A stretch of DNA of 64,000 nucleotides from positions 28,544 to 92,543 of the forward strand of contig JBECUL010000002.1 of the NCBI GenBank assembly GCA_040225955.1. Direction: 5' to 3'. Below are positions 5,194 through 34,688 of this stretch, in pieces; positions within the stretch are counted from its first letter, which is position 1, and each line of letters opens with the position of its first letter. Both the position numbers and the translations under genes were made by a program. Origin of the DNA: Candidatus Asgardarchaeum abyssi. Lineage in GTDB: Archaea > Asgardarchaeota > Asgardarchaeia > Asgardarchaeales > Asgardarchaeaceae. A model generated the notes under the pieces. The model made no database searches and was not told the origin of the DNA. It worked only from the letters and a program-made list of their open reading frames with translations.

Positions 5194-5442
5194 ATGCATA
5201 GCACAGTACAAATGCCATTAGCGTTAGTCCCAGAAGGTGCATTAGTTGAGGTTGTAGCATACTCTCCAAATGTGGGGAAGGGTTTTATGCATAAAGTTAC
5301 TGCCCTAGGGTTAATTCCTGGCGCAATTATCAAGGTTATACGTAATCACTTTCCTGGACCAATAATGCTTGATATTAAAGGTTTTAGAATTTTTATCGGT
5401 CACGGGATTGCAAATAAAATTCTTGTAAGGGTGATAGGATGA
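5194..5442 (+). CDS. feoA: FeoA-family protein (second copy)
   Basis: 82 aa, LVPEGALVEVVAYSPNVGKGFMHKVTALGLIPGAIIKVI. It starts 3 nt after the first feoA and overlaps feoB by 4 nt. Confidence 0.8.
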   Translation: MHSTVQMPLALVPEGALVEVVAYSPNVGKGFMHKVTALGLIPGAIIKVIRNHFPGPIMLDIKGFRIFIGHGIANKILVRVIG

Positions 5443-7966: not shown

Positions 7967-8194
7967 ATGAGTTCCCGACCTTTAACTGATATAAGGAGCT
8001 GTGGGGTGATAACTCAAGTGAAAGGAGGAATAGAGGAGCTTAGACGTCTTGCTTCACTTGGTCTTGCACCAGGAAGGACAGTGAAAGTTCATGTAAATTG
8101 CAGTATTATGGTTATTGAGGTTAATAATTCGGTACTTGTGCTTGATCGACAAATAGCGTCAAAGATTATGGTAAGTGACCGATATGAGGATTAA
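7967..8194 (+). CDS. feoA: FeoA-family protein (third copy)
   Basis: GVITQVKGGIEELRRLASLGLAPGRTVKVHV. ATG 7967 is preferred over the TTG at 7955 given in the ORF track. Confidence 0.7.
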   Translation: MSSRPLTDIRSCGVITQVKGGIEELRRLASLGLAPGRTVKVHVNCSIMVIEVNNSVLVLDRQIASKIMVSDRYED

Positions 8195-16765: not shown

Positions 16766-17188
16766 ATGAAGTTAGAAAATGAAAAAATGGAACGAATTAG
16801 CGTAACTCTCCCAACGGATTTGATAAGCCGCTTGGATAATTTCATTCAAAAAACTGGATACCCGAGCAGATCCAAATTAGTTCAAGATGCGGTGAGGGAG
16901 TTTCTTGTTAAACACGAGGTTGCAGTATCTAAAGAGAAAAAGGCGATAGGCGCATTATTGGTGATTTTTAAGCATCATCCTCACAATGTTGAAACAAAGC
17001 TAACGCACATCCAACATCATTATGGTGATTTGATTCGCTCTACACTTCACATACATTTAGACGAGGCTAGATGCTTTGAAGTAATATCTTTAAATGGAGC
17101 TATAAGTGAAATGAAAGACTTAATGACTCAAATTCAAAGAGTGAAGGGTGTGCTACGGGTAGAGCTTTTCATAATGGAAGAATTGTAA
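16766..17188 (+). CDS. nikR: Nickel-responsive regulator NikR
   Basis: N-terminal ribbon-helix-helix (MERISVTLPTDLISRLDNFI...SRSKLVQDAVREFL). C-terminal metal-binding domain with His/Cys ligand pattern HHPH...HIQHHYG...HIHLDEARC. Confidence 0.85.
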   Translation: MKLENEKMERISVTLPTDLISRLDNFIQKTGYPSRSKLVQDAVREFLVKHEVAVSKEKKAIGALLVIFKHHPHNVETKLTHIQHHYGDLIRSTLHIHLDEARCFEVISLNGAISEMKDLMTQIQRVKGVLRVELFIMEEL

Positions 17189-17313
17189 CTGTAAGAGGCT
17201 TGGAGAAGAGTATCTTGGCAGCATATTATCTTTAAAGTACGAATTTTTACTAGTAGTAGATGCAACGTGATCTTTTCTTACAAGCCAGAATCTTAATATC
17301 CTGGATGATATAA

Positions 17314-17790
17314 TTATAGTGGTAACTCACTAATAGACTTTATTTCAAAGCGTGCCTTATTAACAATGGAAAGAAAATTTCGCTCTTTTATTATTTGGCC
17401 TAATTGTTTAATTTTTGTATCTTCTGTTAATAATATATCTGCGTTTTCAAGCGCAGCTGCTAAAATGGAGCAGTCTATATAGTCGTTATGAAATTCGTAA
17501 AGTTTTGTTGCAATATGATCTATTCTAAAATCATAAAAATGAACTATTTTGAACTTACCTGAAAGAGTTACAAATTGTAGAACGTTATGATACCTCTCTA
17601 ACAGCAACTTATTCTTCTTTGAAAAATGAAGAATTTTCCATTTAATTTCAAGAAGACTTAATGAATTTATTGAAGGGTTGAAATTCTCAATTATGGTTAG
17701 GAGTTTCTTTTCATCATCTTTCGTTAATTCGATATCTACTCCAAAGAGAGGAAGAAGGTATGTTGTATCTAAGAATATTTTATATTTCAT
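17314..17790 (-). CDS. vapC: PIN-domain toxin (VapC-like)
   Basis: IFLDTTYLLPLFG at the N-terminus and DCSILAAALENADILLTEDTKI near the C-terminus. It overlaps the upstream antitoxin gene by 11 nt. Confidence 0.75.
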   Translation of the reverse strand: MKYKIFLDTTYLLPLFGVDIELTKDDEKKLLTIIENFNPSINSLSLLEIKWKILHFSKKNKLLLERYHNVLQFVTLSGKFKIVHFYDFRIDHIATKLYEFHNDYIDCSILAAALENADILLTEDTKIKQLGQIIKERNFLSIVNKARFEIKSISELPL

Positions 17791-18258: not shown

Positions 18259-21200
18259 TTAGCGGCCTTGCATGGCTCTAATTCTACTTATCACATCATA
18301 CATAGTTGGCCTCTCAGTTGGATTCTTCTTGAGCATGTCTTTAATTAGTTGCCAAAGTGAATCACTAATCCCCTCTGGTCTTTTTGGTTCCTCACGCAGT
18401 ACTCTATTTACAACAACATTCAGCTCCTTTCCGAACGGGGGCTCTCCTGCAACTATCTCATAAAGAACAGCTCCAAGTTGCCATACATCAGTCCACTGCG
18501 AAACGTTACCGAAGCTTGGGTCAAATTGTTCTGGTGCAAAGTATGCAACTGTTCCCTTAAGCTCACCAGTAACTATTAATGTTTGCAGTCCTCCGAGTCC
18601 CCAATCACTTAACTTATAGACATCTCCTTTGTATAATATGTTCTCAGGCTTAATATCACGATGTACCAGGTAGAAGTCCTTATGTGCATATTGTAACCCA
18701 AGTGCTATGTCTAATATTATTTTTAAGGCCTCTTTTTCATCTAGCTTTCCTTTCTCATTGAGAATATTTCTTAATGTTCCATCCATCAACTCCATAGAAA
18801 TGTGCGGTAATGGCTCAAGACCGTAGCTAATCAATCTTACTATGTTTGGATGATCTAAAGTCTTCCAGATAGCAACTTCTCTTATAAATGATTTTAGTGC
18901 TTCCTGATCCTTTACATTTAAGATTTTAAGTGCTACTGGTCTTCCTTGAGGATCTATAGCTCTAAATACTGTTGCAAAGCCACCGACTCCAATCACGCCT
19001 TGGACTTTATAACCCGGTACCGCAACAGTAGGCATTTCCCTTGCTTCGACCTTTGCGGGTACCCTTACTGCTGGAACAGCTTCGACAAATACCAGCATTC
19101 CATCGCTAATTTTTGCTCTAATCTTGCCATCTGCAATAAGTCTAGTGAGAATGTCCTCTACCTCTTTTGCGTCAATATTTAATTTGTCTGCGATATCAGA
19201 TATGCGATATTTCTCATATGCCTTTGCTATCTCATTTACGTAATCAGTTAAATAATCCACAAGGTAATCTATTGAATAAAATGTTGTCATATCCCTTGAG
19301 GTAATAATGCCATAGTCTTTGAGATAAAAGATCTCTGATGGTAGGCTTTCTGGCATATACTCTAATTGAAGTGATGCCATTAAGTCTGAATAACTGATTT
19401 TTCCAGCATTCTTTATTATAGATGCTATACTCATTTTTAGATTCTCAATACCCTCTTTTGTGACAATTGTCATGTCTCTATTGATAGGCACTCTGTATAC
19501 GCTCATTAACATACTAATTATGAAGTCAATATCCTCGTTACGGATATCTGTTGCGGCAAGCCATTTTCTAACATCAATTATAGTTCTACTTGCTTCACTC
19601 AATAGATTATCTCTTACGCTGAGCATAAAACTCTCTGGATAAAGAACTCCCGAAGGCCCCATATACACGTGATATTTCTTAATAAGTTCATCACTGTGCT
19701 TGCTGACTAATTTATATTGATCTTGCAGTGATAGTTTTGATATCTTCGTTTCTCTAACATCTATGGGGGTATTTGCTTTTTGCACATAAGTAGCTATTTC
19801 CTCAAGTATACGCTTTCTTCCCTTTCCTCTCATCACCCTAACTGTAACTACGATAGCTCCTATGCCTACTACACCAAATATTGGTAGAAATATGTGTAGA
19901 TTGAAGTGAATAAATTCAATTGGACCAACTGCAGGATCCAATGGATCATATCCATTCCTTGCTTCCCAACCATCAATTATACCATCATCATCAGTATCTG
20001 GATTTAATGGATCTGTATGATATTTCTCAACTTCTTCGCCATCCATCAAATCGTCGTCGTCACTATCACTATCATATGGATTTGTGTAGCTTTGATACTC
20101 CTCTATATTTGTTAAATCATCACGATCAGGGTCATCATACGCATCGCCTGCATCTCTTGCATTAAAACCATAGAATATTTCCCATCCATCTGGCATCCCG
20201 TCACCATCAGTATCCCATTTATACGGATCTGTCTCAAATATAATCTCTGAAAATGTGGACGCAAAGTCATTATCAGGATCGAAGACTCTAGTATTTCTAT
20301 TATGCATCGGATCGCCTCCGAAGCATGACCAGTACGTTCTAATGCCAAAGGATACCTCACTTGAGGACTTCAATGCATATATTCTATTATCATCACTGCC
20401 CACAACTATTTCTACTACCCCATCGTTGTCTAAATCCCATATCGCCGGTGTTGATTCTATGCAGTCTCTTGTTTTATATATCCATAACACTGAGCCGTCT
20501 TCGCCCTGAAAAGCGTACAATCCTCCATCTCCACTACCTATAACTACCTCTAATCTATCATCTCCATCTACATCTCCTAGTGCTGGTGATGCGGGTATAT
20601 AACCACCAGTAGAATAAGACCAGAGCAATGTTCCATCTTCACCATTTACTACATATACGTCAGATTCTACATCTCCAATAACTACTTCTAGTTTTCCATC
20701 TCCATCTACATCTCCTATTGCTGGTGATGACATTATAGCACCTTTAGTTGCGTAGAACCAAAGTTCTTCTCCAGATTTCCCATCTATTGCGTATAATCTC
20801 CAATCATAAGAACCAATAACCACATCTAAATCTCCATCATTATCCACATCTCCCAGCGATGGTGAGGACCATATGATATCCCCAGTTCGAAAGGTCCATA
20901 ACAATGTTCCATCTTCGCCATTTAATGCATATATAAAGTTGTCATAGCTTCCAACAATGACTTCCAAGTTTCCATCATCATCTATATCTCCTAATGCTGG
21001 CGATGACCATACGTTATCTCCAGTTTCATATTCCCATAGCACCAAGCCAGTTTCACCATCAAGAGCATATATTTTGTTACCTCCACCAATAACTACTTCT
21101 AACCATCCATCACCATTTATATCCCCTAATGCTGGTGACGAAAGAACTTCAATATAGATTTCAAAACTCCATATCAATGATCCGTTCTGGCCATTAAATG

Positions 21201-21645
21201 CATTTATAAAGCCACCTTTGTCCCCAACGACGATCTCCAGATTGCCATCGTTATTTATATCTCCTATTGCTGCCGATGAAAATATGGGATGTCCAGTATA
21301 ATTATACCATAATATCGAACCATCTTCACCGTTTATTACGTACATTTTTCCATCGTCACCGCCGATGACAACTTCTGGCATTCCATCATTGTCAACATCT
21401 CCTATTGTTGGTGAAGCAAGTACATGTCCTTCAGTGTTATAAATCCAAAAGGTAGCAGGCTCTTGGTATGATGAGATTTGTTTGCTCTCCACCACGGTTG
21501 TGCTAACTAAAGGATTTAAAGCGTATGCTATCGATAATGTAGAGAATATAAGCAATAGGGTAGCTATGGTTGCCAAAAGCAGTATACCCTTTTTATGATG
21601 TTTCATTTTTCTTAAACTTTTAATACTTTTTAGGTAGACCAACAT
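18259..21645 (-). CDS. Receptor-like Hanks-type Ser/Thr protein kinase with an extracellular FG-GAP-like beta-propeller
   Basis: N-terminal anchor; 8 repeats of the type GDVDNDG.LEVVIGS.D..LYA..GEDG..LW; Asp-rich TSP3-like stretch (DTDGDGMPDGWE, DSDSDDDDLMDGEE, DTDDDGIIDGWE); TM IFLPIFGVVGIGAIVVTV. A cytoplasmic linker of about 270 aa follows. Kinase motifs are GVGGFATVF...VALKIL, HRDIKPENIL, SDWGLG and YFAPEQ. Confidence 0.85.
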   Translation of the reverse strand: MLVYLKSIKSLRKMKHHKKGILLLATIATLLLIFSTLSIAYALNPLVSTTVVESKQISSYQEPATFWIYNTEGHVLASPTIGDVDNDGMPEVVIGGDDGKMYVINGEDGSILWYNYTGHPIFSSAAIGDINNDGNLEIVVGDKGGFINAFNGQNGSLIWSFEIYIEVLSSPALGDINGDGWLEVVIGGGNKIYALDGETGLVLWEYETGDNVWSSPALGDIDDDGNLEVIVGSYDNFIYALNGEDGTLLWTFRTGDIIWSSPSLGDVDNDGDLDVVIGSYDWRLYAIDGKSGEELWFYATKGAIMSSPAIGDVDGDGKLEVVIGDVESDVYVVNGEDGTLLWSYSTGGYIPASPALGDVDGDDRLEVVIGSGDGGLYAFQGEDGSVLWIYKTRDCIESTPAIWDLDNDGVVEIVVGSDDNRIYALKSSSEVSFGIRTYWSCFGGDPMHNRNTRVFDPDNDFASTFSEIIFETDPYKWDTDGDGMPDGWEIFYGFNARDAGDAYDDPDRDDLTNIEEYQSYTNPYDSDSDDDDLMDGEEVEKYHTDPLNPDTDDDGIIDGWEARNGYDPLDPAVGPIEFIHFNLHIFLPIFGVVGIGAIVVTVRVMRGKGRKRILEEIATYVQKANTPIDVRETKISKLSLQDQYKLVSKHSDELIKKYHVYMGPSGVLYPESFMLSVRDNLLSEASRTIIDVRKWLAATDIRNEDIDFIISMLMSVYRVPINRDMTIVTKEGIENLKMSIASIIKNAGKISYSDLMASLQLEYMPESLPSEIFYLKDYGIITSRDMTTFYSIDYLVDYLTDYVNEIAKAYEKYRISDIADKLNIDAKEVEDILTRLIADGKIRAKISDGMLVFVEAVPAVRVPAKVEAREMPTVAVPGYKVQGVIGVGGFATVFRAIDPQGRPVALKILNVKDQEALKSFIREVAIWKTLDHPNIVRLISYGLEPLPHISMELMDGTLRNILNEKGKLDEKEALKIILDIALGLQYAHKDFYLVHRDIKPENILYKGDVYKLSDWGLGGLQTLIVTGELKGTVAYFAPEQFDPSFGNVSQWTDVWQLGAVLYEIVAGEPPFGKELNVVVNRVLREEPKRPEGISDSLWQLIKDMLKKNPTERPTMYDVISRIRAMQGR

Positions 21646-22142: not shown

Positions 22143-25025
22143 TTAAGTTGTAATCTTTAATTCCTCTAGAAACTTTTCTGGAATCCATTCAATTCTCAGT
22201 GCTTCTGACAAATTAATTTTCATTGAGCTGATACTCACAATAAGACCAAATATGCTGCTGAGTATAAGGAAGAAGACGGAGTAAAGGATACCATTAAAGA
22301 ATGTTTCATTGCTAGCGAGTACAGAAGATATAAATGTCAGATCAATGCCTAATATTGGAGAAACTATAAATGTTAAAACATAGCTGAAGATAAATCCAAA
22401 CAATACAGCGTAAAGTAAGGTTAAGAAAATCTCAACAAAGACAAGTTCAACTATTTTTCTTCTCTTTTCACCTATTGCTAAAAGTATGGCTATTTCTCTA
22501 TTTCTTCTCTTCCCAATCACTATTAAAAGCTCCCAGAGGGCTACTGTTACTAGAACTATTGATGCCATATATGATGCATTAAGCTCAATAACAGTACCCC
22601 TTATTACATCTTCTTCTGTTTCATGTTTTATTTCATCAATTGTAAATCTACTAAACGACAGATCGATTTCAGAGTACTTATACTTTAATAGTGCAAGTCT
22701 ATTTTTGATCTCTAAGCTTGCTCTTGTTTTATTTGAACTTTCTTTTAATCTTATGAGTAGGGTAACACCAACATAATCTTGCAGTTTTAGTACTGTTAAT
22801 ATATCCGTTATTATATAGTCCAAGACTGGATAATAAAAGAAATACTCCCAATCTGAGACATCAACATGAATATTTATTCTTAAAATTGGTAGTACATGAG
22901 CCACAAATATAAACCAGGGAGAAAGGGGCTCATCTATAGTTCCAATAATTTTAATAGGTACAACCTCTTTTGTTTCATTACTTAATAATTTCAGTACATC
23001 GCCCTCTTCGAAATTATAAATCTCTTTCAAATATTCTGATGCTATTCCGTTACCAGTTCCATTTCTAATATTGCTAAATAGCTTAGCGTACTCTTTCTCT
23101 TTCATTAATTGTCCATCCTTAGAATATACAGTCTCCAGAAAACTTTCTGGGATTATGCCTAGAATGGGATAAGACCATATAGTTTTACCATCAAACTCTA
23201 AATCGTATAGCGAGGTAATAATAGTATATGCCTCTATATCTGATATGTTTTCAATAATATCCTGTACGATTTCATTTATTCTTGTTAGATTATTTGATGA
23301 TGGAAATGAAATGTTGATATCACTGCCAGTTAGCCAATATTCCTTTGCGTAATAAGAGGAAATATAGCTATTAAATAACGTATTTGAGGAGATACTTACC
23401 ATGACTATTATTGTAAACACACCTGCTATTACTTTTGTCATAGTAGATTTATGAAAAACGTTTCTAAGACCTATGGTTAAAGACCTTAGTGAGTTATATT
23501 TTCTGAATCTTCTTGTTAAGTGCAATAGAAGCGGCTCTAGGTATCTATAAACAATTCTAGTAGTGCCAACAACAAGAGTAAAAGGAGAAATCAAAAACAT
23601 CATACCAAATACTGTTAGTATTATTAATGTGGACAATAATCCAAATCGGTGAATGTTATCCACGTCAAGGATCATCTGAACAATTAAGGGGAATCGAAAA
23701 TAAATAGCTATTATTGCGAGCGTGTAAAGAATCAGAAGAGCATCCAAATACGTTCCTTGTAGAACAGTAAAGACCCTTTTTGTGATGCCCTTTTTCTTCT
23801 CTATTGTCTTTGATATGAGAGTATTGAATGTTTTTATAAGCAAATAGATAAACACGCTAATGGTTATTGTCAATAGATAAATTCCAAGCAAATAGACATA
23901 ACTCATAAACGACCTAAGAACTACAGGATATTTATAAAATCCTTGTGGGTCATAAGCCATTAGAAATAATCGACTAGCACCAATCCCGGCAAGAATCCCA
24001 AATAGTATTCCTAAAGCGATTTGCACCGATAAATAGTTCAGAAATATGTATTTTTTAGCTCTTTTCGAAAACCCTCGAGCGGTGATGACGTTTAATTCTC
24101 GTTCCCATTTGAGATAAAATGTCTCGATGAAGAAATACTGAATAGTGTAAAAGGCAATGAAGAGAGGTATACAGGCAAGAATAAGTCTTTGCTTGAAAAG
24201 GTTCTTCCACGCCAAAAGTTCTTCTACATGATAAAGTAGCGGAAAGTCAATAAAAACACGAACATGATATTTAGGATACGAAAGCTCATCGGGTAGGTTT
24301 GAAAGATGATTTGCTAGTGAGGATAGCTCATCTTTTGTTAGCTCAGGATTCTCTTTGTTAACAATTAGAGAATTATCTATGTCAGCTACAAAATTGTAAG
24401 AGTAACCAGAAGTTGCGGCAATCATATGAGCTAAGTTTACTATTGTATCAAGAGGCGCAATCGCTACAATGTTGCTTAAACTACTTGTAAAATTGATCAA
24501 GAAAAATCCTGAAATTGTTATATTTTTTATAGATCCATAATACGTCTTAACGATTGCAAATTTATCTCCAATTTTTAGGTTATGGAGCTTTGCCAGATCG
24601 GACCGTATACATATCTTATTTTCTTGAAGTGTACCGTTAGTAAGCTTAATTTTAAGAGATTCTAATGTACTTTCATTCTCGATACCAACGATTTCCCCAT
24701 CAAATGTCATATGTATGTTATTTTCACTTGCAGGTAATTTATAGTGTATGCCTAAGCTTTTAAATTCGAAAAAGTGAGAAATGTAAAACTTTGCTGATAT
24801 AGTATCTCGAACTGCAATAACTAATTTACGTTCTTGTTGAGCAATTCGGTAGTCTGAAAAAGTTACTTTAATGAATAAGTCGTTTTCTTCTTCTGGTATT
24901 GTACTTTCAGCTTTTATATAGCCAATTGAATCAACTGCCAATAAGGACCCGAAAATAACCATAGTTATTATAATGTATGAAAATAATTGAGGACTAAATC
25001 TCAATGGGTTAAGAAGGCCCCTCAA
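22143..25025 (-). CDS. Large FtsX-family ABC permease-like membrane protein (two FtsX modules), no adjacent ATPase
   Basis: 960 aa. N-terminal TM followed by large extracytoplasmic segments and two TM bundles, each preceded by FtsX-like motifs (ERELNVITARGFSKR and NREIAILLAIGEKRRKIVELVFVEIF). Confidence 0.7.
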   Translation of the reverse strand: MRGLLNPLRFSPQLFSYIIITMVIFGSLLAVDSIGYIKAESTIPEEENDLFIKVTFSDYRIAQQERKLVIAVRDTISAKFYISHFFEFKSLGIHYKLPASENNIHMTFDGEIVGIENESTLESLKIKLTNGTLQENKICIRSDLAKLHNLKIGDKFAIVKTYYGSIKNITISGFFLINFTSSLSNIVAIAPLDTIVNLAHMIAATSGYSYNFVADIDNSLIVNKENPELTKDELSSLANHLSNLPDELSYPKYHVRVFIDFPLLYHVEELLAWKNLFKQRLILACIPLFIAFYTIQYFFIETFYLKWERELNVITARGFSKRAKKYIFLNYLSVQIALGILFGILAGIGASRLFLMAYDPQGFYKYPVVLRSFMSYVYLLGIYLLTITISVFIYLLIKTFNTLISKTIEKKKGITKRVFTVLQGTYLDALLILYTLAIIAIYFRFPLIVQMILDVDNIHRFGLLSTLIILTVFGMMFLISPFTLVVGTTRIVYRYLEPLLLHLTRRFRKYNSLRSLTIGLRNVFHKSTMTKVIAGVFTIIVMVSISSNTLFNSYISSYYAKEYWLTGSDINISFPSSNNLTRINEIVQDIIENISDIEAYTIITSLYDLEFDGKTIWSYPILGIIPESFLETVYSKDGQLMKEKEYAKLFSNIRNGTGNGIASEYLKEIYNFEEGDVLKLLSNETKEVVPIKIIGTIDEPLSPWFIFVAHVLPILRINIHVDVSDWEYFFYYPVLDYIITDILTVLKLQDYVGVTLLIRLKESSNKTRASLEIKNRLALLKYKYSEIDLSFSRFTIDEIKHETEEDVIRGTVIELNASYMASIVLVTVALWELLIVIGKRRNREIAILLAIGEKRRKIVELVFVEIFLTLLYAVLFGFIFSYVLTFIVSPILGIDLTFISSVLASNETFFNGILYSVFFLILSSIFGLIVSISSMKINLSEALRIEWIPEKFLEELKITT

Positions 25026-25244: not shown

Positions 25245-26117
25245 ATGTTGGTAGGCTTTATCGGACTTGGTATGATGGGTTTAAGGATGGCCAAGAGGCT
25301 ATTAAATAAAGGTATACAGTTAGTTGTTTGGAATAGAAGTAAGGAGAAAATAGAACAATTAAGAAAATTTAATATTGAGGTAGCCAGTGCACCTAAAGAG
25401 CTTGCCAGAAAAACGAAAGTTATTCTGTTAATGCTATCTGATGAGAATGCTTGTGATGAGGTTATATTTGGAGAGAATGGAATTCTTGATGGTCTATCGG
25501 AAGGCAAAGATCTTACAATAGTGAACTTCTCGACAATATCTCCAGCTTACAGTATAAACTTAGAGAGATCACTAAAGAGTGCAGGTGTAAAATATGTGGA
25601 GGTTCCAGTATTAGGTAGTTTAAAAGAGGCAGAAGAAGGTCGTTTATTAGCTCTGATTGGTGGTGATAAAGAAACTGTAGATGAACTGAGCTCTATTCTT
25701 GATATTCTTGCTGGAAAGCGTATCTATGTAGGTAGTGTTGGTAAGGCATCCGCACTAAAGCTGACTGTTAACTCGTTGTCGTTGACAATTGTTTCTTTGT
25801 TCTGTGAGGTTCTAACTCTTGCAAGAAGTTGGGGCGTGGACGTAAACACAGTGTATGATGTTCTCAAAGAGACATGGCTTAAAGCGGTTGTGGAAAAATA
25901 TGGTAGCCGGGTTCTCTCAGATGATATACCTCCAAGGTTTAAAGTTGAGTTGGCTAAGAAAGATCTTTTTTATGCTCTTAAAAGTGGCTACGAGAAGAAT
26001 GTCCCTCTCTTGATAATATCATCCGCAGTACAAGTATATACAAACGCAACCAAATGCAAAGACCCTTCGAAGGACTACACAAGAAACGTGTTTAAATATT
26101 ACAGCCGTTTCCTATAA
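25245..26117 (+). CDS. NAD(P)-dependent oxidoreductase, 3-hydroxyisobutyrate / 6-phosphogluconate dehydrogenase-like
   Basis: N-terminal Rossmann motif VGFIGLGMMGLRMAKRLL...VWNRS. The length (290 aa) and the C-terminal helical domain fit the HIBADH family. Confidence 0.8.
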   Translation: MLVGFIGLGMMGLRMAKRLLNKGIQLVVWNRSKEKIEQLRKFNIEVASAPKELARKTKVILLMLSDENACDEVIFGENGILDGLSEGKDLTIVNFSTISPAYSINLERSLKSAGVKYVEVPVLGSLKEAEEGRLLALIGGDKETVDELSSILDILAGKRIYVGSVGKASALKLTVNSLSLTIVSLFCEVLTLARSWGVDVNTVYDVLKETWLKAVVEKYGSRVLSDDIPPRFKVELAKKDLFYALKSGYEKNVPLLIISSAVQVYTNATKCKDPSKDYTRNVFKYYSRFL

Positions 26118-26316: not shown

Positions 26317-26904
26317 TTGGTAATAGACGGGAATATAGGAGGATCTGTATTGAGCATCCTTCTAACCGAAAATAAGTTAAAGCTACTATACTTGATATAT
26401 CTCTATACGATGAACAAGGATCCCGAAAAAGGTGAAACTTGGATCAAAGAGAATGCTTTACTTTCACTAGCACACTATTTAATCGAGAAAAACGTTTTGG
26501 ACTATGACTATGCACCCCAGCTTGTGTTATGGGGAGATAAAACGAGAATTGCCAATATGTCTACACAGCTAATTCAAGAACTTAATGAATTAAGACTAAC
26601 ACATGTAGCCCAGATGAGAGTTGCAACAACAGATTATAGATACCTAAAGGCATATCGAATAACAAATTCCGGTGTTGAGGCTTTGAGCAAAATTCCAGAT
26701 GAAGTGAAGAATGCAGTTAGGCAAGCACTTAGCTGCCCTAACTGCAATTCCTTACTCGAGATAAAGTTTAATGAGGAAAATTTAGAGCCCTTTCTATTTT
26801 GTAAAAATTGTAATTTGAAAATAAAAATAGGTTTGCTGGATATAGGTGATTACTCCTATGAGGTAAAATCATTCAAGTTGAGGGATTTCCTAGATGACAT
26901 CTAA
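26317..26904 (+). CDS. Hypothetical protein with a wHTH-like N-terminus and a C-terminal CxxC...CxxC zinc ribbon
   Basis: CPNCNSLLEIKF...FCKNCNLKIKI zinc ribbon. The N-terminus (ENKLKLLYLIYLY...ALLSLAHYLIEKNVL) looks like a winged helix. The more likely start is TTG 26350, 6 nt after GGAGGA (26338-26343). It overlaps the next ORF by 11 nt. Confidence 0.5.
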   Translation: MVIDGNIGGSVLSILLTENKLKLLYLIYLYTMNKDPEKGETWIKENALLSLAHYLIEKNVLDYDYAPQLVLWGDKTRIANMSTQLIQELNELRLTHVAQMRVATTDYRYLKAYRITNSGVEALSKIPDEVKNAVRQALSCPNCNSLLEIKFNEENLEPFLFCKNCNLKIKIGLLDIGDYSYEVKSFKLRDFLDDI

Positions 26905-28333
26905 CGGAGAGGATAATAGTATAAAAATTGAGCAAGAGCCTAAGGAATTTCTGTTCTTCAAGGAACCAAAAATAATAATTTCAGAATGGTATCCTTTTGG
27001 CCCTATACAATTTGAAAGCTTCGCTAATCTTGTAATGCGTCAAGATATTCAGAGAAAGGTATTCCTATCTCTAAGAGTAAAAGATCACCCGCAAGAAGCT
27101 TATTTCAAGACAACCAAAAAACTAGCTCAATTATTAGTTGGTCCACCTTCAAGTAAAAGCTGGAATGTTATCGAATTTGAAACTATTATGGAAATCGGTT
27201 CTAAAACACAAGTTGAGAGGATTAATGCATTAGTGATGGATTACGGATCAGTACTATACAGTATTGAGCTAGTGAAGATTGGTGAGGAACATACTTTCTT
27301 TGGCTCTGATAGGGTTGCCAGAGTAATTGCTAATTTATTTGACGATATATCCTCTTTAATGACCTCATTACTGAGCAGCTACCAATTAAGAGCAATAAAA
27401 ATAATATATCCGCAATATGAGAAAGAGGGCTTTGAGAAATCTAAAATTTTCTTGATTGCAACCAAAGAAACTAAAGCAAAGGTCAAGGACACACAAAAAT
27501 TTGAAGAAGTAAACATAGAATATATGCAACTTCTTGGTAGTAGACTAAAAATAATAGAGCTCAACGATTTAAAGATAGTAGAGGGAGAATTAGGCATAGT
27601 AGCTGAAGGAGAATACGAGAAATACCTTTCAGGACTTATATACTATTTGCAAGTTTTAGCAATAAAGCGATTTTTGAATGATTTATATTCCCGAATATGG
27701 ATAATGTGGGATAACGTCATTTATATTCGAGAGGGGATATTTAAGGAAGAGGAAGAAATACTGACCCTTCTAGAAGAGCTATCAAAATTGCATAGTGACT
27801 TAAACATCTTAAGGAATATCGGTCTGCTGTTTACGCATGCTGTTTGTAGGCTTAAAGAAAAATACGATATTATCATAAGAAAAAGGAATGTATACACTGA
27901 AAGTATCATTAATAAACTTAGAGTGATAGACCTAATAGAAAGCTTGGAGAACCAAGTTAAAGAACTATCGAATTTCATTGCATCGCTTATCGACGAAATA
28001 AGGAGCCTACAAATTGTTGCATCATCGTTCTTAGAAGAAGAGCATTATCAGCTGAGAAAGATCATGACTGAAAATATCAAAAAGCAAGCAAGCATGCAAG
28101 CAGCTCTAGAAGTTATAGAAATAGTCATTATAGGCGTATATGGTTTAGAGGTAGGTCATCTCTTGGCAAATTACCTTATTTATGGGCCAGAAGCCATTCA
28201 ATCAGAACATTTTCTTATGGTAATCGGTACTGGAATAATCTTCTTACTCCTAGGTATACTCATTATTCACACTATTAGAGAACGGTATCTTGAAAAAGCA
28301 GAGATTATCAAGGAAAAAAATAAGAAGACATAG
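26894..28333 (+). CDS. Hypothetical membrane protein with CorA-like topology (large soluble N-domain, coiled coil, two C-terminal TM helices)
   Basis: 479 aa. Heptad-rich region (LIESLENQVKELSNFIASLIDEIRSLQ), then AALEVIEIVIIGVYGLEVG (TM1), a short loop, FLMVIGTGIIFLLLGILII (TM2) and a basic tail HTIRERYLEK. Confidence 0.5.
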   Translation: MTSNGEDNSIKIEQEPKEFLFFKEPKIIISEWYPFGPIQFESFANLVMRQDIQRKVFLSLRVKDHPQEAYFKTTKKLAQLLVGPPSSKSWNVIEFETIMEIGSKTQVERINALVMDYGSVLYSIELVKIGEEHTFFGSDRVARVIANLFDDISSLMTSLLSSYQLRAIKIIYPQYEKEGFEKSKIFLIATKETKAKVKDTQKFEEVNIEYMQLLGSRLKIIELNDLKIVEGELGIVAEGEYEKYLSGLIYYLQVLAIKRFLNDLYSRIWIMWDNVIYIREGIFKEEEEILTLLEELSKLHSDLNILRNIGLLFTHAVCRLKEKYDIIIRKRNVYTESIINKLRVIDLIESLENQVKELSNFIASLIDEIRSLQIVASSFLEEEHYQLRKIMTENIKKQASMQAALEVIEIVIIGVYGLEVGHLLANYLIYGPEAIQSEHFLMVIGTGIIFLLLGILIIHTIRERYLEKAEIIKEKNKKT

Positions 28334-28429
28334 TGACTGCTAGTGATTGCATAAAAGGAAACCTAATAATAAATTTTTTATGAGGTATTAGAATAAACTA
28401 TTATAATATACGGCTATAGGGGATCTGGC

Positions 28430-30943
28430 TTGATAATTCGTCAAGCAAAGGAAGAGGAACTCGAGGAAATATTAAATCTCTACTATGAATCGTCAAAAGA
28501 AATACTCGGAATTGATGACATACAAGAGATGATAGAGTATGATCGTAGAATGTATGGAGAACAATATAAATTCCTATCGCTTGAGAATTTAAAAAAATGG
28601 TTCCAAGGAAATTCTCATAAACTGCTTGTTGCGGAAGTAGATGGGCAGATTGCAGGTTTCATAATTTTTCATCATATTGAAAAAAGAAATATAGGTTATA
28701 TTGAGGAAATTCATGTCAAGAAGGAACATAGAGGAAAAGGAGTAGGTAGCACACTTCTGCTTGAAGCAGAAAAAAGATTATATGATGCGAACATAAAATT
28801 CATCTTCTTAGAGGCTCAAGAGAAAAGTGTTCCCTTTTTCTTGTCTAAAGAATATATTCCGCTATATCATGAGCGAACTCTCTATATGGGCATTCTTGAT
28901 TATGTGGATATGGTTAAATTTCCAGATGTTAACTTATCATCGCTAATAGGCGCAGCCCTTGAGTACTTTAAATATTCTGAAGAAGCTTCAAGTGTATTAA
29001 AGAAAGTAATCCAGAAAATTGAAGAGAATAATCTTCAATCAATTTATGCCAGTATCGCGTATCTAATTACTTTTGCGGAGGAAGAAGACAATAGAACACA
29101 GTCTTACATTCCATTATACAAAAAAATAAAGAAAGAGACATGTAGAATACTTGGAAAAGAGTCCAAATATAAGAATCTCCTTGAAGCTATAGGACTTCGT
29201 ATCTTGGCATATGGTGATATAGATTTAGGTAATTACAGGCGTGCAATTGATAAGCTTGAAAGAGCTAAGGTAAAACTAGAAGAAGTTTATAATATGATGA
29301 AAAAGGATATTGTTTGGAATACATATCCTTATTCGATTATTAGAGATTTTGTTCGATGTTACCTCTACTACGTAGAGAGAATGAAGAGATTTTGTGAAGC
29401 CTATGTTCAATATGCAGAGACTGGAAATATCATTGAGGATGTAAATAGGGCCTCAGATAAGATTTTATGTGAAGAGTTTTCAAATCAAGATACGGAGATA
29501 GATTTCTTTGAGAAAAGTATTGAATGGATTCTTAATTTTCTTAGAGTCAAGGCTCCTAGGATTCCGCCTAATAAAGTAAAATTGGATGGTACAGTATGGT
29601 TTCTTAATTTCTTCACAATTGAAAATTATGAGGAAAAATTCCCTGCGGCTCCTAAAATTAATGATTTAAGGAAAATCTTTACTGAGATTCTGGGAAAGAG
29701 GGTTGTTTTTACGGAAAATTTGATAATCTCTGAGGACATTATTCCAGAGCTTCAGAAAAAACATTTAACAACACATGTTAGTTTGATGATTCCTAACCCA
29801 ATACTCTATTGCAGAGTTATGGATAAGAGATTTTATGAAATTGCCGCATCATCTGCAATTGAAATTGTAATTTTCGGTAACGGCACTGGTATAGTTCGTT
29901 TTTCACTTAATTTTGAAGATTTAACACCTCTCGAACTCTATCATTTGACTTTTATCACAAATTCCTCAATTTTGGAATATGACGTAAAACTTGGAGACTT
30001 TTATGTCTCATTGAAGGATTTTGAAGAAGCAGAAAATTGGAACTCATTATGGTACGCCATAAAATCGATCCTTGACAAGTTTTCAGAGAAGATAGGAACT
30101 GGTAAGGTTCTTATGGAAAGTGAACCAATCAGCTATGTAGTTGTTAACATTCAAGACTCAAACGTGCATGATATTAGTGTGTTAAAAGACTTTCCTGAAT
30201 TATTTTCAATTGTTGATAGGGTTCAGACCGTTATGTCTGGACCATCAATTTATTTCAGAAGATACTTAACAAATAAAGATGCATTTTCTAAGAATCTTGC
30301 CCCCCTCATAGGATTCGACGATGCAGAGATATATGCATCCAAAACGGGTTTACTACTACAAACTACTACTATGCCACAGTGGATTGTCGATGAAATAATG
30401 GAGATTTCAACTCTTTTGACCTACCAGAGATTTTATCTTTACATAATTAGACTCATGTTAGATAAGTTTTTAACCTTCAGCCGTGAAGGCACTTCAATAC
30501 GGCTTTCTGCAGAAAATGTAAATAAACTCCGAACGGAGGTTATTACTAAGCTATGGATTTTATCCAGCCCATTACCACTAAGATACAGCGAATACTTAAA
30601 GTTCATAGAAACACTAAAAGAAAGCATGGGCATTAATAATTTCGAGGCTATGATAAAGGAGCAACTTAGTGCATTGTCCAGAGTCATTGAAATCGAGCAG
30701 ATTAGTGCGTTACATGACCTTCAATATCGATCTGAAGAAGAAAGAAAGATTCTTGATTATATCGCAACCATAGTTGGTATACTCGGTGTTGGGGAAATAT
30801 TATGGAGAATAATAAGCGTTATCTTTCCAGAATTCCCTGAATATACAATTGTAATAATTTATGCGATCCTGAGTATAATAGGATTAGTTATACTTAGAAG
30901 GAGCTCGGAAGTTTCAAAAGAAAGTGAAAGTACATCATTATAA
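28430..30943 (+). CDS. GNAT acetyltransferase domain fused to a large uncharacterised domain with a CorA-like two-TM C-terminus
   Basis: N-terminal GNAT (IAGFIIFHH...IHVKKEHRGKGVGSTLLLEAEKRL) and about 600 aa of unknown region. The C-terminus has YIATIVGILGVGEILW (TM1) and TIVIIYAILSIIGLVIL (TM2) followed by RRSSE. TTG start. Confidence 0.55.
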   Translation: MIIRQAKEEELEEILNLYYESSKEILGIDDIQEMIEYDRRMYGEQYKFLSLENLKKWFQGNSHKLLVAEVDGQIAGFIIFHHIEKRNIGYIEEIHVKKEHRGKGVGSTLLLEAEKRLYDANIKFIFLEAQEKSVPFFLSKEYIPLYHERTLYMGILDYVDMVKFPDVNLSSLIGAALEYFKYSEEASSVLKKVIQKIEENNLQSIYASIAYLITFAEEEDNRTQSYIPLYKKIKKETCRILGKESKYKNLLEAIGLRILAYGDIDLGNYRRAIDKLERAKVKLEEVYNMMKKDIVWNTYPYSIIRDFVRCYLYYVERMKRFCEAYVQYAETGNIIEDVNRASDKILCEEFSNQDTEIDFFEKSIEWILNFLRVKAPRIPPNKVKLDGTVWFLNFFTIENYEEKFPAAPKINDLRKIFTEILGKRVVFTENLIISEDIIPELQKKHLTTHVSLMIPNPILYCRVMDKRFYEIAASSAIEIVIFGNGTGIVRFSLNFEDLTPLELYHLTFITNSSILEYDVKLGDFYVSLKDFEEAENWNSLWYAIKSILDKFSEKIGTGKVLMESEPISYVVVNIQDSNVHDISVLKDFPELFSIVDRVQTVMSGPSIYFRRYLTNKDAFSKNLAPLIGFDDAEIYASKTGLLLQTTTMPQWIVDEIMEISTLLTYQRFYLYIIRLMLDKFLTFSREGTSIRLSAENVNKLRTEVITKLWILSSPLPLRYSEYLKFIETLKESMGINNFEAMIKEQLSALSRVIEIEQISALHDLQYRSEEERKILDYIATIVGILGVGEILWRIISVIFPEFPEYTIVIIYAILSIIGLVILRRSSEVSKESESTSL

Positions 30944-30993: not shown

Positions 30994-31683
30994 ATGAATA
31001 GAAGAATTCCTGTTTGTTGCTTCATTTTTGACCTTGATGGCACGCTTGTATATTATAAGGATGGTGTTCTTGAGTTTCTTGATAAAATAGTCATACATAC
31101 TTTGCAAGACCTTAATTTGCCATTGCCTGACAAGAAAGAGCGTCTGAAATTATGGGATGGAAAAATATCCTCTAATGACGTACTTCGGTCATGGAAAATA
31201 TCAAACTTATATGAGTTTTGGAGAACCTTTGACAGCTATCAGCTTCCTGCAGTTGAAGACGGAATTAAGAATGGTGAGATTTTGCTCTACGATGATGTAC
31301 TTCCCACACTCCGAAAACTAAAAGAAGAAGGATTTGTAATTGCTGTTGTTACAAATACACCCTCAGATATTACAGAGATAAAACTAAAAGGTCTAGGTAT
31401 TCGCGATTTTTTCTCATGCGTTATTGCACTCGGAACAGAATTGCAAGAGCTGGCAAAGCCGAATCCATATGGAATCCTTAAGTGTATTAAAAAACTGGGA
31501 TTTTCTCCAAAGGAGGTTGCTTATGTAGGCGATTCTCAGTTTGACATATTAGCAGCCAAAAATGCTGGTTGTTATTCCGTACTAATTAACAGAGAAAGAA
31601 GAGTGCTTGAGGAAGAACCAGATTTTGAAATTGTGGATCTTAATGATCTGCTCAGCACTTTTAAGAAATGTGAAAGATATTAA
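30994..31683 (+). CDS. HAD-superfamily hydrolase (phosphatase, PGP-like)
   Basis: Motif I FIFDLDGTLV, motif II VVTNT, motif III K...GDSQFDILAAKNAG. Confidence 0.85.
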   Translation: MNRRIPVCCFIFDLDGTLVYYKDGVLEFLDKIVIHTLQDLNLPLPDKKERLKLWDGKISSNDVLRSWKISNLYEFWRTFDSYQLPAVEDGIKNGEILLYDDVLPTLRKLKEEGFVIAVVTNTPSDITEIKLKGLGIRDFFSCVIALGTELQELAKPNPYGILKCIKKLGFSPKEVAYVGDSQFDILAAKNAGCYSVLINRERRVLEEEPDFEIVDLNDLLSTFKKCERY

Positions 31684-31841: not shown

Positions 31842-34688
31842 TTATAATGCTCGAAATACTTCAGCTATCGAAGTTCTATAGAGCTTTTTTACAGATGTTA
31901 CCACGGTTATAAGAACAATTAACCCGAACAAAGAAATAACCAAGAAAATATAATCCAACGGTATTTCATTTAAAAATAGATAGAAATCAAGCGCTGACGG
32001 CATTCTGCCATAATTGTTTTCAATGTATATTATAAACATAAAGAGTATGAGTCCAAAACTTCCCATAGTACCGACTATCATAGCGAGAAGGAATACAAAG
32101 AGGTTTTCGTAAAGTAAAGATAGTAAAATATCTTTTAAAGATGCCCCTAAGGTTTTCAAAATTGCTATTTCTCTTTTCTTCTCGTCTATTGAGAAGTAAA
32201 AAATAAAGACAAAAACGGAGGCAATGAGCATATATGGTACCAGAAGGATTTCTTTTAGAAATATTTGATATTCCCTCTCACTTTTTATTCTTTTCAAAAC
32301 TTCATCTATGTCTCCCACACTAATGGATAGATATTTATAATTCTCCTTTATGTATCTCACAACGCTTATTAAATTCCCTTTCGAAGCCTTTATATAAAAG
32401 GTATGTGATACAAACGTTATATCTAGTGTTACATTTGCTAAATGTTTAATAATATAATCTTTAGGAAGTATTATAAAATAATCATTCGTAAAAACTCGTT
32501 CTAAAAATGGAACGTAATTCTCAGCTATAGCTACTACTATAAAATTATCGTAGATTGTAAATTTTTTTGGGCCTCCAGTCGTAATCTCCAGTGAAATCAA
32601 ACTTCCTACTTTAGCATTCACTTTGCTGGCTAGTTTTGAGGATATTATGGCCATAGCAATTCCCTTGCTGCTCCTATTAAACATACTGATAACTTTCTCA
32701 AAACTCATATTTACTTGTGCTATCCGGAACCAGGTGGCTAAATCTGTATTATTCAGCTCTATATTTGTTTTTATATACATCTCTGATACTTCAATATCGT
32801 CAGTGGATGTTATTATTGTATCATTACATTTACAGTTTTTAACATAGAACTCTCTAAAACCAACAACATACTCAACACCTGGTATTTCTGCAAATTCATC
32901 AACCAGATCTAATGATGATACTGTTGTTGTTTCACTTACAACAATTGGTATTTTTCCTTCATTCAGCTCATGCAATTCCTTTCTGTAGCCTATTACCCAA
33001 AAATTAGAAAAAGCCATTGGAATCAGAGTGTAGTGGAAAACGAAAACTAATAATATAAATAATATAAGCGTACGTGCGTAATATGCTTTAAGATGTTTTG
33101 TCGAAATATATGCAGATCTTGAGAATTTAGTTACAACTTTATTTATATAGCTAGGAATCTTGGAGAAAAGTGTAATTCCAAACAAGATAGGCCATGTAAA
33201 CCAAAGAATAACATCTATCTGTAAAATATCAATATTCAGAGGTTCAAACAAAATTGCATATGCGGATAACGTGATGCATAATATAAAAACTAAAAGACTT
33301 ATCACATGATACCATCTACTAATAGAAATTCTTTTAATCTTCGACGCTTTAAACTGATAGAGCCCAGTAGCTATACTTTCTCTCATTGTAAATATGAATG
33401 GAGTGAGTGTCGCAATTTGGGAAGAAATAAGTAGAATTGCGTAACTTGAAAGTAGCATTTCTAAATTCCACGGCATCTCAGAAGATGTTGCTAGTAACTT
33501 ATTTCCTGTTATCTCCTTTAATATTTTTGTGATGACTTGTGAGATTATCGGTGAGAGCATCACGCCTATTATGAATGAGATTGTTAGAATAAATGTTGTA
33601 GTAAGCACTAAAGCTAATGAAATTGAAAATGGTGATAATCCTAATGCTCTAATAATTGCTATTTCCCTTCTTCTTTCATTTAATGACGATAAAAATGCGA
33701 CGAACGTTATACAAAATGCTATTGTTATAGAAAAATATGAAATCGCATCTATGATGAGTCGAACGTTTTTAATAATGTCCTCATTAACTGAATTTATTAA
33801 TTTAATTTTTGGCATGCTTGAAATAAGAATAAGCTTTGCATCAGGAACATAGGGATATACTGTTGCACCGTCTTTTTCTATGCCAAGAATTATTTTTTTC
33901 TCTGCTAATCTATCTTGAAGGAAAGTAAGGAAGCTCATAAGTTCTTCTTCATACTGATTAACATCTTTAATTAAAGGGTCTCTATATCTAATCGCTATTA
34001 TTCTCTCAATTATTTTAGAAGTTGTGTAATTAAGCATGATGTTAAATGTATTGATAGAGGTAAAAATTGGTAACTCAAAAAGAACATTAGCTAGTATGTC
34101 ACTAAAGAGAGTCGTGACATTATATATCGCGGCAACGGTAAATGTATATCCTTCATAAGAAATAATTTTATCACCAATTGTCAAATTAAGAAAATCTGCT
34201 AAATATTTAGGAATAATTATCGTAAAATTATTATAATGATTATCAAAAGTGAAGTTACTAAGGCATGCAATTATATTATTTTTTAAGAACTCTACAACCC
34301 AGTCACTACTCATATTAATCCCTACAATATAGTTAAATGCTTCGCGTGGGCTTACTATGGCGAATCCTTCTTTTAGCCGGAAGGCAATATCTATTTTAAC
34401 ATTGGGTCTATATTCTAAGTACTCATCTGTGATAATACTACTAATCATATTCACAATACTCAATGTAAAATTTTCATTAGAACTTCTAATTCTAACATCT
34501 GGAATTAAATTAAGTGATTCCAAAAAAATCACATTTCTTAAATTATAAATTGAGTACTCACTGGCATATATGGATGCTGATGCAGTAATTAAAATAAGAA
34601 TCATAGGAATTATCTTTTTCCGATCTCTTAATAATATCTTTAAAAAATGAAGCAACAATTTTATATTCATGAGCATTGAGCCTCCCAA
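31842..34688 (-). CDS. Large FtsX-family ABC permease-like membrane protein (two FtsX modules), no adjacent ATPase
   Basis: 948 aa. FtsX-like motifs RREIAIIRALGLSPFSISLAL and KREIAILKTLGASLKDILLSLLYENLF each precede a TM bundle. Overall architecture matches 22143..25025. Confidence 0.7.
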   Translation of the reverse strand: MGGSMLMNIKLLLHFLKILLRDRKKIIPMILILITASASIYASEYSIYNLRNVIFLESLNLIPDVRIRSSNENFTLSIVNMISSIITDEYLEYRPNVKIDIAFRLKEGFAIVSPREAFNYIVGINMSSDWVVEFLKNNIIACLSNFTFDNHYNNFTIIIPKYLADFLNLTIGDKIISYEGYTFTVAAIYNVTTLFSDILANVLFELPIFTSINTFNIMLNYTTSKIIERIIAIRYRDPLIKDVNQYEEELMSFLTFLQDRLAEKKIILGIEKDGATVYPYVPDAKLILISSMPKIKLINSVNEDIIKNVRLIIDAISYFSITIAFCITFVAFLSSLNERRREIAIIRALGLSPFSISLALVLTTTFILTISFIIGVMLSPIISQVITKILKEITGNKLLATSSEMPWNLEMLLSSYAILLISSQIATLTPFIFTMRESIATGLYQFKASKIKRISISRWYHVISLLVFILCITLSAYAILFEPLNIDILQIDVILWFTWPILFGITLFSKIPSYINKVVTKFSRSAYISTKHLKAYYARTLILFILLVFVFHYTLIPMAFSNFWVIGYRKELHELNEGKIPIVVSETTTVSSLDLVDEFAEIPGVEYVVGFREFYVKNCKCNDTIITSTDDIEVSEMYIKTNIELNNTDLATWFRIAQVNMSFEKVISMFNRSSKGIAMAIISSKLASKVNAKVGSLISLEITTGGPKKFTIYDNFIVVAIAENYVPFLERVFTNDYFIILPKDYIIKHLANVTLDITFVSHTFYIKASKGNLISVVRYIKENYKYLSISVGDIDEVLKRIKSEREYQIFLKEILLVPYMLIASVFVFIFYFSIDEKKREIAILKTLGASLKDILLSLLYENLFVFLLAMIVGTMGSFGLILFMFIIYIENNYGRMPSALDFYLFLNEIPLDYIFLVISLFGLIVLITVVTSVKKLYRTSIAEVFRAL

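Follow-up and report, generated by a model that had tools for sequence, protein, structure and literature searches.

A conserved gene pair encoding a predicted CorA-superfamily protein and its partner, beside a species-specific acetyltransferase gene, in Candidatus Asgardarchaeum abyssi

CorA channels are the main route of Mg2+ entry in prokaryotes and mitochondria. A stretch of 64,000 nucleotides (nt) from the archaeon Candidatus Asgardarchaeum abyssi (assembly GCA_040225955.1, contig JBECUL010000002.1, positions 28,544 to 92,543; hereafter the window) raises the question of whether a protein of this kind can be joined to an acetyltransferase. The original prediction, made from the letters of the window, described three closely spaced open reading frames (ORFs) as one uncharacterized module: a zinc-ribbon protein and two membrane proteins with CorA-like topology, one of them fused to a GNAT acetyltransferase. 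The answer reached here divides the three genes. ORF1 and ORF2 probably encode two subunits of a conserved CorA-like cation channel complex, and ORF3 a separate, species-specific acetyltransferase anchored in the membrane. The genes and the junctions between them, in positions of the window, are as follows.

26317..26904, + strand: ORF1, 195 amino acids (aa), TTG start; soluble partner protein of the MJ1567 family (PF27231)
26894..28333, + strand: ORF2, 479 aa, ATG start; membrane protein of the MJ1566 family (PF27230), predicted CorA superfamily
28430..30943, + strand: ORF3, 837 aa, TTG start; lineage-specific, putatively membrane-anchored GNAT protein
26894..26904, + strand: ORF1/ORF2 overlap of 11 nt, ORF1 stop versus ORF2 start
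28334..28429, + strand: ORF2–ORF3 intergenic region of 96 nt, from the sequence reading

All three are real genes and not chance ORFs. Their shared direction, the overlap, and the gap were reproduced on the + strand, and the motifs quoted earlier were all found, namely CPNC...CKNC in ORF1, GVYGLEVG in ORF2, and HVKKEHRGKGVGSTLL in ORF3. The same three genes are called in public assemblies, including the NCBI metagenome-assembled genome; homologues of ORF1 and ORF2 reach E-values of 1e-37; and ORF3 is preserved at full length in independent assemblies. ORF3 lies next to the pair in every assembly of the source species. A GAGG sequence stands ~10 nt 5ʹ of the ORF2 ATG, near the overlap, and ORF1 and ORF2 are likely to be translationally coupled. 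Abutting or overlapping junctions also occur in the relatives of this pair. The G+C content of the window is 31–40%. By hydropathy, ORF2 and ORF3 each end, as predicted, in two hydrophobic helices and no more, with a basic stretch behind them, and because this stretch comes after the second transmembrane (TM) helix, the large N-terminal parts of both proteins are placed in the cytoplasm.

Which families do ORF1 and ORF2 belong to? In the precomputed annotation of the source contig, ORF1 matches PF27231 (MJ1567) and ORF2 matches PF27230 (MJ1566_N), recent Pfam families that take their names from adjacent uncharacterized genes of Methanocaldococcus jannaschii; local scans of Pfam and NCBIfam returned nothing significant for either protein. 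The label "uncharacterized" therefore fails for family status, although it holds for function, which has been described for neither family. While a word-index homology search with ORF2 returned ORF2 alone, an exhaustive phmmer (HMMER) search at E<=1e-3 gave 104 relatives, mostly with full-length alignments. Identity to the relatives outside its own cluster is just 20–31%. The parts of ORF2 on which the following comparison draws are these.

26942..27610, + strand: cytoplasmic alpha/beta N-domain, aa 17–239 (alignment conservation, AlphaFold2 secondary structure)
27614..28099, + strand: long helices, aa 241–284 and 289–329, and stalk from aa 344 (predicted local distance difference test [pLDDT] >90 in AlphaFold2; Foldseek)
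28100..28168, + strand: TM1, aa ~403–425, continuous with the stalk helix (hydropathy, AlphaFold2)
28142..28150, + strand: G-L-E triplet, aa 417–419, where CorA has its GMN filter (alignment)
28211..28276, + strand: TM2, aa ~440–461, followed by a basic cytoplasmic tail (hydropathy, AlphaFold2)

ORF2 is connected to CorA through its relatives and through its predicted fold. Eight full-length relatives with YGMNF...MPEL pass the Pfam CorA model (E 1e-17 to 1e-27); the match spans model positions ~130–292, which comprise the stalk helix and TM hairpin, and public annotation gives two of these eight GMN-containing proteins an MJ1566_N plus CorA architecture. In both MAFFT and hmmalign alignments, IIGVYGLEVG of ORF2 lands on I-x-G-x-YGMNF, so that GVYGLEVG (aa 414–421) is indeed equivalent in position to the G(I/V)YGMNF gate. 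An AlphaFold2 model of ORF2 made from an input alignment of 63 sequences (pLDDT 86, predicted TM-score 0.78) consists of an alpha/beta N-domain, helices 241–284 and 289–329, a 90-residue helix (344–433) that includes TM1, and a helix (438–478) that contains TM2. When this model was compared with the PDB by Foldseek, the top 36 matches were exclusively CorA, Mrs2, and ZntB, among them 2iub, 3jcf, the M. jannaschii CorA 4ev6, and human MRS2. The best match, 8tmb_B, has an E-value of 2.8e-7 and a probability of 1.00 over ~340 aligned columns; ORF2 aligned over essentially the entire chain of full-length CorA entries, and the first unrelated match has a probability of ~0.1. By transitive sequence homology and predicted fold, ORF2 is a CorA-superfamily homologue, which upholds the CorA/ZntB/Mrs2 layout first proposed for it. 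The RMD1/DUF155 layout offered as an alternative found no support, as Pfam DUF155 was matched neither by ORF2 at E<=1 nor by sub-regions of ORF3 at E<=10.

With the CorA/Mrs2/ZntB divalent-cation channels (the 2-TM-GxN or MIT superfamily, PF01544; for example T. maritima CorA 2IUB/3JCF, M. jannaschii CorA 4EV6, human MRS2 8TS1), which are the only significant PDB fold matches of its model, ORF2 shares the alpha/beta N-domain, the funnel helices, the continuous stalk and TM1, TM2, and the basic tail. Its family differs from them in an N-domain with motifs of its own that are unlike CorA: EWIPFG, SLDxLSRxxxDxxxDSS, and LLSxYQR. Membership of ORF2 in PF27230 is evident by EW-x-PFG, Q-x-E, D139/R143/D151, Q164, E209/Q212, and G231/G234; the conserved polar or acidic positions of its N-domain comprise E31, P34, Q106, E108, G118, D139, R143, D151, Q164, E209, Q212, G231, and G234. 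Two consensus residues of the family are replaced in ORF2, N38 by Ile and D147 by Asn.

The second difference from CorA lies in the filter. The 2-TM-GxN family is defined by its GxN signature, which serves as the selectivity filter (PMC6972854). In ORF2 the aligned residues are G-L-E, in agreement with the earlier remark that the GMN triplet is missing, and because the signature is missing, ORF2 falls outside that family as strictly defined. Across the MJ1566 family, GMN is kept in just eight representatives (in the genome set described below, in bacteria only), and Asp or Glu occupies the position of the GMN Asn in ~50 of ~75 alignable members. The variants that replace GMN include AFD, AFE, and x[V/L]E. 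Methanocaldococcus orthologues carry FGVYALEA, the same G-x-Y-x-L-E type of TM1 as ORF2, and ORF1 and ORF2 both share the family matches and motifs of PF27231 and PF27230.

If ORF2 is CorA-like, what is ORF1? Unlike classical CorA proteins, which are not known to have a dedicated partner, the MJ1566 family has one in MJ1567, either as a separate protein or as a fused domain. This is evident from two sets of loci. The contigs of 11 ORF2 relatives gave 13 metagenomic loci, and MJ1567 abuts or overlaps MJ1566 in 11 of them; the remaining two lie at contig edges, one with the MJ1567 C-terminal motif in an upstream fragment. The usual order in these loci is MJ1567 followed by MJ1566, inverted once (L006). 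The genome set of 28 loci was drawn from species-representative genomes with a degenerate EWIPFGxN DNA pattern and family hidden Markov models (HMMs) as filter. MJ1567 stands next to MJ1566, overlaps it, or is fused to it in 23 of these loci, and another two lie at the edge of a locus. Combined, 34 of the 41 loci have the two genes adjacent, overlapping, or fused, in Archaea as well as Bacteria. The archaeal sources of the genome set are Methanocaldococcus species, Methanocaldococcaceae, Methanobacteriota, Thermoplasmata, Hermodarchaeota, and Promethearchaeota, and the bacterial sources are Acidobacteriota, Coatesbacteria, Planctomycetota, Muiribacteriota, Verrucomicrobiota, Dehalococcoidia, and Myxococcales.

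Moreover, an MJ1567 HMM derived from six family members of the stand-alone form matches the N-termini of ~40 of the 104 ORF2 relatives (E 1e-20 to 1e-41), that is, the two are fused in a single polypeptide. Examples are a Wallbacteria protein (PKK90968.1; P0049/P0136), a Chromosphaera perkinsii EukProt entry (P0044), and the proteins of L025, L065, and L068; P0044 is one eukaryote-derived database entry and hence a candidate eukaryotic member. The spread of the adjacency across two domains of life and the recurrence of fusion argue strongly that ORF1 and ORF2 act as one unit, with ORF1 as a genuine functional partner.

The fused relatives have further features of their own. They are 600–1170 aa long, many have an additional conserved domain after TM2 (...YDxxNG[FY]LL...EL...GV...), and many share the TM1 motif G(S/T)LAF(D/E)I(L/M)DRLT. 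Five of them (P0028, P0067, P0108, P0112, and P0135) bear the JGI/IMG label "WD repeat-containing protein 35," which looks like a spurious transfer because Pfam shows no WD40/IFT domain there.

ORF1 itself is a recognizable member of its family. The family alignment has the core motifs LLYLI, WI(K/R), DYAP, N(I/V)SQEG, AY(R/Q)(I/V)(T/S)xxG, and EDVSYxSxP, and ORF1 has recognizable forms of all MJ1567 motifs, seen as LLYLI, WIKE, YDYAP, AYRITxxG, and a C-terminal D-Y-S-Y-E. Its membership is evident by the Pfam match together with these motifs, including the C-terminal (D/E)-V-x-Y-x-S. A second possible TTG start lies at codon 12. Since a conserved N-terminal helix precedes Met32, the true start is one of the two upstream TTG codons, and the ATG at codon 32 was excluded on account of the conserved residues upstream of it. 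The zinc ribbon of ORF1 has the following position.

26734..26811, + strand: C4 zinc ribbon CPNC...CKNC of ORF1, aa 140–165 (weak zinc-ribbon Pfam matches, E ~0.005)

While this ribbon is real, with four Cys in place as the original prediction held, the four Cys are present in just 8–13 of 41 MJ1567-family sequences, which marks the ribbon as an optional insert and not the essence of the family. The winged-helix-like N-terminus also claimed for ORF1 is no more than hinted at, by sub-threshold HTH_45 matches in two of the 10 family members, the strongest at E 0.013, and a sequence pattern resembling a winged helix-turn-helix sits in the middle of the protein (~aa 85–125) and not at its N-terminus. 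Furthermore, the MJ1567 profile gave no winged-helix match among PDB sequences, and weak zinc-ribbon matches only.

These features bear on a different account of the pair, in which ORF1 and ORF2 do not form a channel but a membrane-tethered device for signaling or gene regulation, ORF1 binding nucleic acid and being held or released by ORF2. ORF1 does weakly match zinc ribbons of the TFIIB, Elf1, and aIF2-beta types, the faint HTH_45 matches would fit, and the GxN filter has been lost in most of the MJ1566 family. This account is nevertheless unlikely. The zinc-ribbon Cys occur in about one quarter of family members, so the ribbon is not a conserved function; the permanent fusion of MJ1567 in ~40 relatives is more in keeping with a domain of structural or regulatory function than with a factor that can be released; and the MJ1567 partner is shared by bacterial members whose GMN filter is intact.

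Divergent CorA-family proteins with unusual N-domains can also act as ligand-activated defense effectors (PMC10600005), and the pair might by this precedent be an antivirus or abortive-infection membrane effector. The CorA of Bacteroides fragilis is a type III CRISPR-associated effector activated by SAM-AMP (S-adenosylmethionine–AMP; PMC10600005). Like ORF2, this CorA is divergent; just its C-terminal part resembles classical CorA, and it has a large, distinct N-domain. It is thus a precedent for ligand gating in the CorA fold. The two differ in their partners, NrN or SAM-AMP lyase for the CRISPR-associated CorA and MJ1567 for ORF2. In the source contig, no type III cas, NrN, or SAM-AMP lyase gene lies within +/-10 kb of the pair. 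A PIN/MazE toxin–antitoxin pair does lie ~8.5 kb upstream. However, PADLOC gave no significant match for ORF1, ORF2, or ORF3; neither in the window nor in the loci sampled does a cas or defense gene stand beside the pair, the neighbors being variable housekeeping genes; and cultivated Methanocaldococcus species, whose genomes are small, carry the MJ1567/MJ1566 pair. A role in a defense system was dropped on the negative PADLOC scan and the neighboring genes, and as an explanation of the pair it is highly improbable.

The remaining step concerns ORF3, the gene that gave the locus its initial appeal. Its recognizable parts are at the two ends.

28430..28924, + strand: GNAT domain of ORF3, aa ~1–165, acetyl-CoA motif R-G-K-G-V-G (PF00583, PDB GNAT matches)
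30749..30895, + strand: C-terminal TM hairpin of ORF3, aa ~774–822, with GILGVGE in TM1 (hydropathy, low-confidence model)

The claim of a complete N-terminal GNAT domain is borne out by the PF00583 match of aa 32–137, well above the cut-off (E 9.9e-17, 61.7 bits, cut-off 20.7), by the RGKGVG motif, and by PDB GNAT matches. In NCBIfam, ORF3 is RimI-like (E 6.9e-10, 39 bits versus a rimI equivalog cut-off of 86). The RimI/Ard1-type GNATs (PF00583; TIGR01575; Sulfolobus solfataricus SSO0209, 2X7B/4LX9), with which aa 1–165 share the R-x-x-G-x-G acetyl-CoA motif, are its closest counterparts, yet ORF3 falls below their cut-offs. It also differs from them in ending with a TM hairpin, whose helices hydropathy places at ~776–799 and ~804–822, and in having ~670 residues beyond the GNAT domain for which the searches detected no relative. 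Those searches comprised word-index searches with all of ORF3 and with ORF3 lacking its GNAT domain, which returned the query alone; genome and metagenome contig scans, which gave no relative; and all ORFs of 39 loci from other organisms, including by tblastn, which held no ORF3-like sequence. Homologues are confined to the species-level cluster of ORF3 itself. The gene is full-length in two independent 837-aa versions, which differ by 12–15 mostly conservative substitutions and show no disruption.

Could ORF3 nevertheless belong with ORF1 and ORF2 in one three-gene module, as a second, extremely divergent CorA-like pore subunit whose GNAT domain couples acetyl-CoA or acetylation to the channel? 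ORF3 is on the same strand as the pair, and ORF2 and ORF3 both end in a two-helix hairpin with a Gly-rich TM1 that contains a Glu. The low-confidence model of ORF3 has a secondary-structure order of GNAT domain, helical region (169–373), alpha/beta region (380–645), ~130 helical residues, and TM hairpin; from aa 380 to 837, this order of alpha/beta elements, a beta-hairpin, helical residues, and TM hairpin resembles ORF2 and CorA. It is compatible with a CorA-like layout but is not evidence of one. At the level of homology, the suggested check of whether ORF2 and ORF3 align with each other was negative throughout: BLASTP found no similarity between them, the ORF2-family HMM scored ORF3 at -0.9, and hhalign gave a probability of 0.5%, its sole, nonsignificant match pairing two beta-hairpins, each of which lies ahead of the first long helix of its protein. 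ORF3 sub-regions gave only noise against Pfam at E<=10, with no CorA or DUF155, and ORF3 contains no GxN motif; two-TM topology is the only CorA feature seen. Furthermore, a GNAT or ORF3-like gene stands beside the pair in none of the 41 related loci. Since ORF3 has no homologue outside its species-level cluster and neighbors the pair in 0 of 41 related loci, the triad is conserved in no relative, and the three-gene module does not stand.

The gap between ORF2 and ORF3 points in the same direction. It contains a T6 run, an AT-rich ATTATAATATA box ~22 nt before the TTG of ORF3, and GGGGAT 5 nt upstream, and from this sequence ORF3 may have its own promoter and be transcribed separately. The single-module explanation is improbable. 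For a GNAT domain joined to a CorA-like pore, only the two-helix topology and the secondary-structure order speak; conservation and homology do not support it. No functional link between ORF3 and the pair emerged, and their adjacency is conserved in no other lineage.

Several observations weigh against the reading of ORF1 and ORF2 as a CorA-like channel complex with ORF3 as a separate protein. ORF2 has no direct match to Pfam CorA (PF01544) at E<=1, and its family profile gave marginal CorA matches among PDB sequences (E ~0.08), restricted to the TM region and accompanied by coiled-coil noise. It lacks the GxN filter. The Foldseek TM-scores for ORF2 are low, 0.21–0.43, despite good E-values, which is attributed to the comparison of a free monomer model, whose helices are very long, with chains that come from pentamers. 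Three loci (L034, L047, and L070, the last from Methanocaldococcus indicus) have MJ1566 without a neighboring MJ1567 despite a readable flank; other Methanocaldococcus loci (L050, L083, and L067) do carry the pair. No publication on MJ1566 or MJ1567 was found, nor anything in the literature on CorA, GMN, and Asgard together. As for ORF3, its single-sequence AlphaFold2 model, with a pLDDT of 37.9, is too poor for fold comparison. The co-directional position of ORF3, 96 nt 3ʹ of ORF2 in every assembly of the species, is compatible with co-transcription or a local functional link. The three competing explanations (a single module, a nucleic-acid regulator, and a defense effector) all rank below a channel formed by ORF1 and ORF2 because of the counterevidence given for each.

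How might such a complex work? By analogy with CorA, ORF2 would most likely assemble as a pentamer with a central pore. The G-L-E triplet in place of GMN would then encircle the outer pore mouth with the carboxylates of Glu419, and the cations that ORF2 would conduct are probably divalent metal ions, its selectivity being unlike that of the Mg2+-specific CorA. ORF1 would most likely dock on the cytoplasmic funnel of ORF2 as a regulatory or sensor subunit. ORF3, in contrast to this pair, would present a GNAT domain to the cytoplasm, followed by helical and alpha/beta regions and tethered by the C-terminal helical hairpin.

The surroundings of the three genes hold the following features.

5439-7457 and 8175-10100, + strand: two tandem paralogues of the FeoB ferrous-iron transporter
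16766-17790 region (L001 1-1141), just upstream of the kinase gene: PIN-domain/MazE-like toxin–antitoxin pair and NikR-like regulator (ribbon-helix-helix plus NikR_C)
18259-21645, - strand: 1128-aa protein with N-terminal FG-GAP/PQQ-type beta-propeller repeats, TM, PCI, and C-terminal Ser/Thr kinase
22143-25025 and 31842-34688, strand opposite to ORF1–ORF3: giant FtsX proteins of 960 aa and 948 aa (Pfam FtsX)
25245-26117, + strand: HIBADH/tartronate-semialdehyde-reductase-like dehydrogenase, upstream of ORF1
30994-31683, + strand: HAD phosphatase, 50 nt 3ʹ of ORF3
51723-55469, - strand: CobN/Mg-chelatase, 1248 aa

The dehydrogenase and the HAD gene belong to the same + strand block as ORF1–ORF3, and ORF3 is nearer to the HAD gene than to ORF2. 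The region is bracketed by two giant orphan FtsX permeases, as originally described; both match Pfam FtsX, and neither has an adjoining ABC ATPase gene. In one Heimdallarchaeaceae metagenome-assembled genome (L011 7841-12378), the MJ1567/MJ1566 pair directly precedes an ABC_tran gene, a 924-aa FtsX, and a second ABC_tran gene. A functional link between the pair and FtsX is unproven, as FtsX lies nearby in this one related locus only, maybe by coincidence. In another related locus (L013 1-3472), the pair is ~2–5 kb from an Asgard ESCRT cluster with Vps4 (MIT+AAA+Vps4_C), Snf7, and EAP30. With the FeoB pair, the CobN/Mg-chelatase, and the CorA-like ORF2, the window is rich in metal-handling genes.

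The prospect that first drew attention to the locus, a GNAT domain joined to a CorA-like pore, matters less than the pair itself, since it is not established and concerns an orphan gene of a single lineage. A far-reaching proposal, which we regard as quite improbable, is that MJ1567/MJ1566 constitutes an unrecognized branch of the CorA fold in which an acidic ring replaces GxN and the channel is gated by a ligand through MJ1567 and not by cytoplasmic Mg2+, with ORF3 feeding into this control. If this were true, the branch would extend across Archaea, Bacteria, and possibly some eukaryotes, with the CRISPR-associated CorA and SAM-AMP as the model for its gating; in this Asgard lineage, ORF3 would acetylate the complex or sense acetyl-CoA. 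The pair is best seen as one branch within the CorA superfamily, set apart by a dedicated partner domain and by a filter position that is acidic and not GxN. Its importance lies in the fact that its membrane proteins are CorA homologues, yet the filter Asn has given way to Asp or Glu in most members and the partner domain is obligatory. As such, the pair represents a natural experiment on the evolution of selectivity and gating in the CorA fold.

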